Origin: Escherichia coli
Lineage (GTDB): Bacteria; Pseudomonadota; Gammaproteobacteria; Enterobacterales; Enterobacteriaceae
Direction: 5' to 3' (one strand)
Length of the DNA: 64,000 nt
NCBI RefSeq assembly: GCF_044324875.1
Contig: NZ_CP172185.1
Position 1 is the stretch's first letter. The number at the start of each line of letters is the position of its first letter. A program made the translations under genes and the position numbers. Below the pieces are notes generated by a model, which saw only the letters and a program-made list of their open reading frames with translations, ran no database searches and was not told the DNA's origin. Positions 29,746 through 31,203 of the stretch are shown piece by piece.

Positions 29746-29777
29746 TGAACTGAACCCCAAAACCTGGACAGTTTCAG

Positions 29778-30500
29778 TTAACCGGCTTTTTGATGCTCAG
29801 TCCGGTATTCTACCGGACTGAGTCCCCCAAGACTGAGTTTTATTCTTTTTTGATTCCAGTAAGTTATGTATTCGTTAACGGCATTTTCCAGCTCTTCTAC
29901 ATTTCTGTAGTCCCGGCGATAGTACATTTCTTCTTTCAGGTGACCAAAGAAGTTCTCCATTACCGCATTATCAAGGCAGTTGCCCTTGCGCGACATGCTC
30001 TGCACTAACCCTCTGTCCGCCAGGGCGGACTGATAACTTTTTATCCGGTAATGCCATCCTTGATCACTGTGGAGCAGCGGTTTCTCCCCTTCAGCAAGGC
30101 TTTCCAGCCCCTTATTTAACATCCGCTTCACCAGCTCCTCTGTAGGCCTGCAGGCCGTTTCCCACGCCACGATTTCCCCGTTAAACAAATCAAGTATCGG
30201 GGACAGGTACAGTTTTTGTCCGCCAGCCCTGAATTCGGTGATATCTGTCACCCATTTCTCACAGGGAGCTTCCGCTTTGAACTGCCGCTGAAGGATATTT
30301 TCTGCAGCGAGTCCCATATTTCCCCGGTAAGACCGGTATTTCTTCAGGCGCACAGGAGACTTCAGGCCGAGCTGTTGCATCAGTTTTCGCACCGTTTTGC
30401 CACTGAACTTAAGACCTCTTTTCTGAAGCTCACAATGGATCCGCCGGTACCCATAACATCCCCGGTGTTCATGGAAGATGGAGGCTATGAGCTGTTTCAC
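29778..30500 (-). CDS. IS3-family transposase OrfB (DDE integrase core)
   Basis: 240-aa ORF with rve-type integrase core (KWVTDITEF...HSDQGWHY...KGNCLDNAVMENFFGHLKEE). Confidence 0.75.
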   Translation of the reverse strand: MKQLIASIFHEHRGCYGYRRIHCELQKRGLKFSGKTVRKLMQQLGLKSPVRLKKYRSYRGNMGLAAENILQRQFKAEAPCEKWVTDITEFRAGGQKLYLSPILDLFNGEIVAWETACRPTEELVKRMLNKGLESLAEGEKPLLHSDQGWHYRIKSYQSALADRGLVQSMSRKGNCLDNAVMENFFGHLKEEMYYRRDYRNVEELENAVNEYITYWNQKRIKLSLGGLSPVEYRTEHQKAG

Positions 30501-30604
30501 ATCAGCATACTTGTCCTTAGCCTTCTGCAGTGACAGCTGGTAGTACAGCGTGCTTCTGGCCAGCCCTGCAGCCTTTAACAGGTCAGACTGGCAGTGTCCG
30601 CACC

Positions 30605-31135
30605 TCAGGCTCCGGATGACTTTCGTTTTTTCTCCAGCTCCTGGCGCTTTTTTTCCAGGAGATGCTCCTGCATGGCTTTCAGATATGCATTTTCTGCGCG
30701 AAGATAACGCAGCTCATTCTTCATCTCTTCCGGCGTCATGTTTGCCTCGTTTTCATGGGTATCATCAGAACGGGTCATGCTTTTCTCCTTCCAGCGCCTG
30801 ATAAAGGCCTCATTACCAGATTTGCGGTAGCCTTTTATCCAGTTTTTAACCGTGTTGTGGCTGGGAATGTTAAACCGGGCAGCTACCCGGGGTAGAGACT
30901 CAGAATGCCCGAGAGCATAAAGAACCACGCAAAGTTTATCTTCAGGAGAATAGCTACGCTTGTGTCTGCAATCCAGTGCCCGAGGACCGTGAAGAAGAAA
31001 AAGATTAATCCAGTGTGAGAGGCTGGTGTGAGAAAGTTGAAAGAGTTTTGCCGTAGAAATGATGCCTGCATGACCGGCCAGGTAGTGATTTACAGCGGCA
31101 AGTTTTACTTCAAATGAATGTTTCATAAACTGCAC
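30605..31135 (-). CDS. IS3-family transposase OrfA (HTH plus leucine zipper)
   Basis: 176-aa ORF upstream of and out of frame with OrfB, typical of IS3 programmed frameshift architecture. Confidence 0.7.
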   Translation of the reverse strand: MQFMKHSFEVKLAAVNHYLAGHAGIISTAKLFQLSHTSLSHWINLFLLHGPRALDCRHKRSYSPEDKLCVVLYALGHSESLPRVAARFNIPSHNTVKNWIKGYRKSGNEAFIRRWKEKSMTRSDDTHENEANMTPEEMKNELRYLRAENAYLKAMQEHLLEKKRQELEKKRKSSGA

Positions 31136-31203
31136 CTTCAGATGTCAGATTATGTCCAACATTTGGGGTGCAGTTCAAACGCCTTATCCGGCCTACGCCA
31201 GAC

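Follow-up and report, generated by a model that had tools for sequence, protein, structure and literature searches.

The insertion sequence IS1397, a member of the IS3 family, inserts specifically within the REPs of E. coli (PMC1525189; PMC3184786), and experiments trace this choice of target to its transposase (Wilde et al. 2003, as cited in PMC1525189). The papers devoted to the element and cited in PMC1525189 are those of Bachellier et al. 1997, Clement et al. 1999 and Wilde et al. 2001 and 2003, of which that of Clement et al. reports, going by its title, activity of IS1397 in E. coli K-12. The combination of IS1397 and REP targeting is not new, but has been known since the late 1990s. For strain CFT073, the occupied site has been reconstructed as TGCCGGATGCGGCGTG/AACGCCTTATCCGGCCTAC, the slash marking the cut (PMC1525189, Additional file 13). 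A second member of the IS3 family, ISKpn1 from Klebsiella pneumoniae, also integrates into palindromic units and is specific for a different type of unit, according to the title of Wilde et al. 2003 (cited in PMC1525189). REPs serve as integration targets for several elements of the IS110 family as well, i.e. IS621, ISPpu9, ISPpu10 and ISPa11 (PMC1525189; PMC3184786), with IS621 inserting beside the palindrome and not in its loop (PMC3184786). Finally, the REP-associated tyrosine transposase RayT (TnpA-REP, encoded by yafM) is an enzyme of the HUH/Y1 type that is thought to propagate REPs (PMC3333891, PMC2817692).

The DNA analysed here is a stretch of 64,000 nucleotides from E. coli (hereafter the window), in which an insertion sequence occupies the spacer between gmhA and yafJ (Table 1). 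There is very little doubt that this is an intact and probably transposition-competent copy of IS1397, an E. coli element of the IS3 family with a transposase that steers integration to the loops of REPs within BIMEs.

Table 1. Coordinates in the window of the IS1397 copy, its parts and the BIME in which it lies
Feature	Position	Strand	Remarks
Complete IS1397 copy	29746..31177	(-), transposase encoded on the minus strand	1432 bp; 99.9% full-length identity to PGAP-annotated IS1397 copies
Terminal inverted repeat IRL (usual IS convention), transposase-upstream end	31153..31177		25-nt arm; element terminus ...GTTCA
Terminal inverted repeat IRR, transposase-downstream end	29746..29770		25-nt arm
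orfA	30605..31126	(-)	173 aa (translation); two helix-turn-helix domains
Slippery heptamer A AAA AAG	30647..30653	(-)	in the orfA frame; programmed -1 ribosomal frameshift site
orfAB fusion transposase	29778..31126	(-)	449 aa via -1 frameshift; HTH_21, rve, rve_2
Target-site duplication AAC, left copy	29743..29745		direct repeat of 31178-31180
Target-site duplication AAC, right copy	31178..31180		direct repeat of 29743-29745
5' half of the split Y-type REP (palindromic unit), GCCGGATGCGGCGTAAAC	29728..29745	(+)	
3' half of the split REP, AACGCCTTATCCGGCCTAC	31178..31196	(+)	starts 8 nt past the gmhA stop codon
Degenerate Y-type unit of the same BIME	29627-29660		intact; hairpin fold
Inverted Z-type unit of the same BIME	29678-29715		intact; hairpin fold

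The occupied REP in the gmhA-yafJ spacer

The spacer between gmhA (synonym lpcA, D-sedoheptulose 7-phosphate isomerase, with its coordinates in the window mapped from the annotation of E. coli 042) and yafJ is a BIME of three units, and the Y-type unit closest to gmhA is the one that was split. The element is bordered directly by GCCGGATGCGGCGTAAAC on its left and AACGCCTTATCCGGCCTAC on its right, within the wider flanks ATGCCGGATGCGGCGTAAAC and AACGCCTTATCCGGCCTACG. The junctions in the lpcA-yafJ spacer read GCGGCGTAAAC/TGAACTG and GCAGTTCA/AACGCCTT, and the corresponding junction 30-mers are GGATGCGGCGTAAAC/TGAACTGAACCCCAA and GGGGTGCAGTTCA/AACGCCTTATCCGGCCT. To restore the empty site, 300 nt of left flank was joined to the right flank minus one AAC, and the resulting 597 bp was compared with 5,426 complete E. 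coli genomes. In E. coli 042, 118UI and many other genomes the construct matched the lpcA-yafJ spacer without gaps and at 100%, which can only mean that the flanks are the two halves of one pre-existing sequence, that the insert consists of 1432 bp plus a 3-bp duplication, and that the IS entered the palindromic unit GCCGGATGCGGCG-TAAA-CGCCTTATCCGGC. Restored in this way, the site reads as an intact REP of the Y type, GCCGGATGCGGCGTAAACGCCTTATCCGGC; as single-stranded DNA this REP folds into a hairpin whose loop is TAAA (-11.3 kcal/mol, z -3.7, matched by none of 200 shuffles). The other two units of the BIME (29627..29715; direct repeats D1 and D4) form hairpins of -6.3 and -9.7 kcal/mol.

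Of the duplicated AAC, the two A's end the loop and the C opens the 3' arm, which places the insertion within the loop at about 1.5 nt from the dyad. An earlier note on this DNA, made from the sequence alone, had described the flanks as the two halves of one REP with an AAC duplication, and had named a failure of the flanks to reconstitute a REP as the outcome that would speak against this. The flanks do rebuild an intact Y-type REP, and the description holds over the full length of the empty site. The further statement of the note, that the insertion is precisely in the centre of the REP, has to be read less strictly: the loop of a single REP was indeed the target, but the duplication is displaced from the dyad by the distance given above. 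The site in CFT073 is of the same REP type and was cut at the same position as that in the window. When the CFT073 flanks joined to the IS of the window were used as the query, CFT073 was absent among the matches listed.

A search of the 5,426 complete E. coli genomes did not find the exact occupied site. Among the same genomes, IS1397 is present in the lpcA-yafJ spacer of only two other records, NRZ14408 and LT599825, which are apparently one strain. The NRZ14408 copy (L001 597-2032) lies in a spacer allele with one REP, where the IS has entered the REP loop at a position shifted by 2 nt in the 5' direction and has duplicated 4 bp (GTAA); it differs from the window copy at 12 positions. Given the one-REP allele, the shifted site and the GTAA duplication, this insertion is independent of that in the window, and two independent REP-loop insertions in the same spacer again illustrate the specificity of the element. 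Because the exact site is absent from all of the complete genomes, the insertion in the window is rare and probably recent in its lineage. The exact occupied site is therefore a possible lineage marker and suggests recent activity of IS1397.

An unlikely alternative to a recent transposition in the strain is an older allele, either inherited or received by homologous recombination from an unsampled lineage. The flanking DNA is a mosaic relative to E. coli 042, with blocks at 97-99.9% identity, and the single base by which the element differs from copies at other loci and in other strains dates the spread of the element and not this particular event. An older allele is, however, at odds with the complete absence of the exact occupied site from the genomes compared, as well as with a duplication and two terminal repeats that are undecayed.

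As for possible effects on the neighbouring genes, the IS transposase gene, gmhA and yafJ are all on the same strand, with the IS between the latter two. The start of yafJ (29563) is now 182 bp beyond the end of the IS, and an extra 1.4 kb separates yafJ from gmhA. The insertion also splits the REP hairpin that normally begins 8 nt past the gmhA stop codon. It is conceivable, if quite improbable, that the strain-specific insertion strips a stabilising 3' hairpin from the mRNA of gmhA (LPS core heptose), drives the transposase by read-through from gmhA, and changes the expression of yafJ. If true, a REP-targeting IS would alter the expression of host genes without disrupting a coding sequence.

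A number of other features were observed in the window. At 2.9 kb from the IS1397 copy lies rayT (yafM, 26361-26858, (-)), accompanied by intact REPs at 26060-26089 and 26262-26291, so that an enzyme linked to the spread of REPs neighbours a REP-targeting IS; the same rayT layout is present in E. coli 042. The window lacks the Flag-2 lateral-flagellar cluster that E. coli 042 carries (24311-26362 versus L058 1-16816), the only remnant being the 3' part of flhA (lfhA) at 97% identity, upstream of which the window runs into paoC, pepD, proA and frsA. Also missing is the ISEc1/group II intron segment of E. coli 042 (~37574-38664 versus L058 27784-29897), where overlapping alignment blocks suggest a repeat at the junction. 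The type VI secretion cluster at 40000-64000 (tssB, C, E, F, H, M, Hcp and Vgr) is 100% identical to that of E. coli 042 and a few other strains, and has no match in ~40% of the complete genomes.

Target choice across natural copies

The exact 32-nt end of the IS was searched for in public metagenome contigs and in one genome per species, which returned 52 metagenome loci and 3 genome loci. With the copy in the window and two copies retrieved from E. coli, the set comprised 56 copies whose outer flank was usable, representing 45 distinct insertion sites. The scan of species-representative genomes contributed E. albertii, a single E. coli and a contig that is probably a contaminant.

In 42 of the 45 sites (~93%), the REP-arm core GYCKGAT is found 12-19 nt from the end of the IS, compared with a positional baseline for this condition in the window of 0.45% (568 of 125,130 strand-positions). 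The modal distance of 18 nt is that seen in the window. The earlier note had regarded assignment to an IS without REP specificity as the finding that would contradict it, and the survey shows the opposite. Both palindrome arms occur beside the same end of the IS, i.e. both orientations are used, and units of the Y type (GCCGGATGCGGCG...) are targeted as well as those of the Z type (GCCTGATGCGACGC...). Clean duplications of 3-4 bp are present in 12 of the 16 copies with two flanks (GTAA, TAAC, GTT, GCCA, TCAA, GTG, GAAC, TGGC twice, ACA, GGT and AAC) and, where both REP arms are recognisable, these lie within ~2 nt of the dyad, with a cut position that wanders. No consistent offset of the duplication with respect to the orientation of the IS was found in the two-flank copies, in which distances of 15-19 nt occur on both sides without consistent asymmetry. 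An orientation-dependent offset, as suggested by the mode of 18 nt on one side, was consequently dropped once the two-flank distances were available. Taken together, the pattern (~93% REP loops, both orientations, Y- and Z-type units, and duplications of 3-4 bp) means that this natural survey of 45 sites confirms at the scale of a population what experiments had shown for a few sites.

The survey also bears on whether the REP halves could themselves be part of the mobile unit, or could derive from two different REPs joined by recombination. REPs are numerous and prone to recombination, matching duplications are missing in 4 of the 16 two-flank copies from other sites, and the right flank of one of these (L045) is the right flank of another copy (L010), which suggests that exchange between IS copies or between REPs has taken place in some genomes. 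For the copy in the window, however, there is hardly any chance of such an origin, since its duplication is exact and removal of the IS plus one AAC yields 597 bp that are identical to many genomes. In addition, the flanks beyond the REP vary between sites, and the REP halves therefore do not travel with the element. Both possibilities were excluded here by the exact empty site.

The three sites of the survey without a REP are L003, L020 and L052. Another short palindrome, CCGGAT(G/A)A(T/C)CCGG, is flanked by the IS at the related sites L055 (E. albertii) and L038 (a food metagenome). The full-length copies without matching target duplications are all on metagenome contigs (L029, L036, L045 and L049), and since L045 and L010 agree in the right flank but differ in the left one, either IS copies have recombined or the assembly is chimeric, as it would seem. 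An IS1397 end was also found in Chryseobacterium mucoviscidosis (L057, a contig of 209 bp with a coverage of 0.89), with the same flank as the E. coli loci L043 and L050; this contig is almost certainly E. coli contamination of the C. mucoviscidosis assembly.

Identity of the element

The earlier note had proposed a 1432-bp element with imperfect terminal inverted repeats, and its coordinates proved to be exact. The repeats, TGAACTGAACCCCAAAACCTGGACA at 29746-29770 and TGTCCAACATTTGGGGTGCAGTTCA at 31153-31177, are imperfect (84% complementary), and the element begins with TG and ends with CA, its termini being TGAAC...GTTCA. Allowing up to 3 mismatches, the 25-mer of the left end occurs once in the window, with 0 occurrences expected (100 shuffles). 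In 17 independent copies the unit likewise measures exactly 1432 bp. One metagenome contig (L053, length 1432, coverage 2368) consists of exactly the IS unit from end to end, being a collapsed repeat, and thereby provides independent confirmation of the boundaries of the element. Within the final codons of orfB there is a perfect inverted repeat of 12 bp with a 3-nt loop (CTCAGTCCGGTA ttc TACCGGACTGAG, 29796-29822), of which the stem is made perfect by an A at 29817, where the consensus has a G.

The transposase is of the IS3 type, in agreement with the IS3-family assignment of the element in the earlier note. OrfA has two HTH_28 domains (Pfam, residues 8-57 and 64-113), and its start codon matches the limits of the CDS annotated by PGAP in the copies L001 and L002. 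In these two copies the CDS is annotated as 'programmed frameshift', in two joined pieces, with limits that map to 29778-31126 (-) in the window, and the reconstructed OrfAB terminates exactly at the PGAP limit of 29778. OrfAB scores 385 bits against the IS3 transposase equivalog of NCBIfam (NF033516, cutoff 160) over the entire profile (1-369 of 369), and contains the Pfam domains rve (7e-21), rve_2 (2.5e-20) and HTH_21 (6e-17). The catalytic triad consists of D295, D355 and E391 with spacings of 59 and 35, followed by K398 at seven residues from E, i.e. a DD(35)E motif. The overlapping frames joined by a -1 frameshift, the score above the cutoff and the DD(35)E motif with its lysine seven residues on are those of the IS3 family. 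A frameshift-stimulating RNA structure was sought downstream of the slippery heptamer, where no fold was significant relative to shuffles (z -0.54).

The copy in the window differs by 1 base from that of strain A10 and by 9 from the consensus of the 17 full-length copies, and its frames are undisrupted. Because the sequence is intact, the copy is presumably active, i.e. competent for transposition. By analogy with other members of the IS3 family, one transcript would give rise to both OrfA and OrfAB, the latter through a -1 frameshift at A AAA AAG. OrfAB would then bind the terminal repeats and excise a circular copy with abutted ends (copy-out, paste-in), after which it may cut the two strands of a REP loop at points 3-4 nt from each other, a stagger whose repair would leave the AAC duplication.

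Over its full length (1432 of 1432 bp) the element is 99.9% identical to E. coli copies, and all of the listed matches carry the annotation 'IS3-like element IS1397 family transposase'. Two elements are considered the same IS by the ISfinder convention when their DNA is at least about 95% identical. The naming of the element as IS1397, supported by near-identity to copies named by PGAP, follows the annotation rule of NCBI and the match in behaviour. The published values for IS1397, which we take to be 1432 bp, repeats of 25 bp and duplications of 3-4 bp, correspond to what is seen here: a unit of ~1432 bp, imperfect inverted repeats of ~25 bp with TG...CA ends, insertion into a REP loop, and a duplication within the range of 3-4 bp. 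The IS1397-like nature claimed by the earlier note is thus upheld, both by the full-length match to named copies and by the targeting of REP loops. Copies that span 80% or more of the element are present in 1,707 of the 5,426 complete E. coli genomes, nearly always on the chromosome.

Comparison with related and REP-linked elements

IS150 and ISKpn8, both of the IS3 family, have the same layout and Pfam domains as the element in the window, and their transposases align over the full length with 43% identity. To our knowledge, no REP specificity has been described for either of them. The closest relative with a different name that was found is ISKpn1, where the identity is far from complete (54% at the amino acid level over the OrfB part, residues 166-449). 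It is next to impossible that the element is such a related or REP-targeting IS3 element (e.g. ISKpn1 or an IS150-like IS) instead of IS1397, since the resemblance of OrfAB to transposases of the IS150 type (including an OrfA of 173 aa with two HTH domains) and the targeting of Klebsiella REPs reported for ISKpn1 (PMC1525189) stand against these amino acid identities of 54% and 43%, on which both candidates were rejected, and against a DNA identity of 99.9% to copies named IS1397.

The REP-targeting elements of the IS110 family have transposases of an unrelated class and no inverted repeats at their termini. Their characteristics, i.e. a DEDD transposase, no inverted repeats and insertion beside the palindrome, are not those of the element in the window, which in contrast has a DDE transposase with an rve domain, 25-nt repeats, a target duplication and a position in the loop. 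RayT, although also linked to REPs, has no sequence relation to the element and is not an IS that lands in REPs.

The significance of the locus is small beyond its correct annotation, for which the region is to be labelled as IS1397, the transposase being marked as frameshifted. Neither a novel type of element nor a novel variant is involved here, but IS1397 showing its known behaviour: in sequence, length, 25-nt repeats, frameshift layout, duplication and insertion into a REP loop, the element agrees with IS1397 without any difference in kind, and it is only in its chromosomal site that this copy is unusual.
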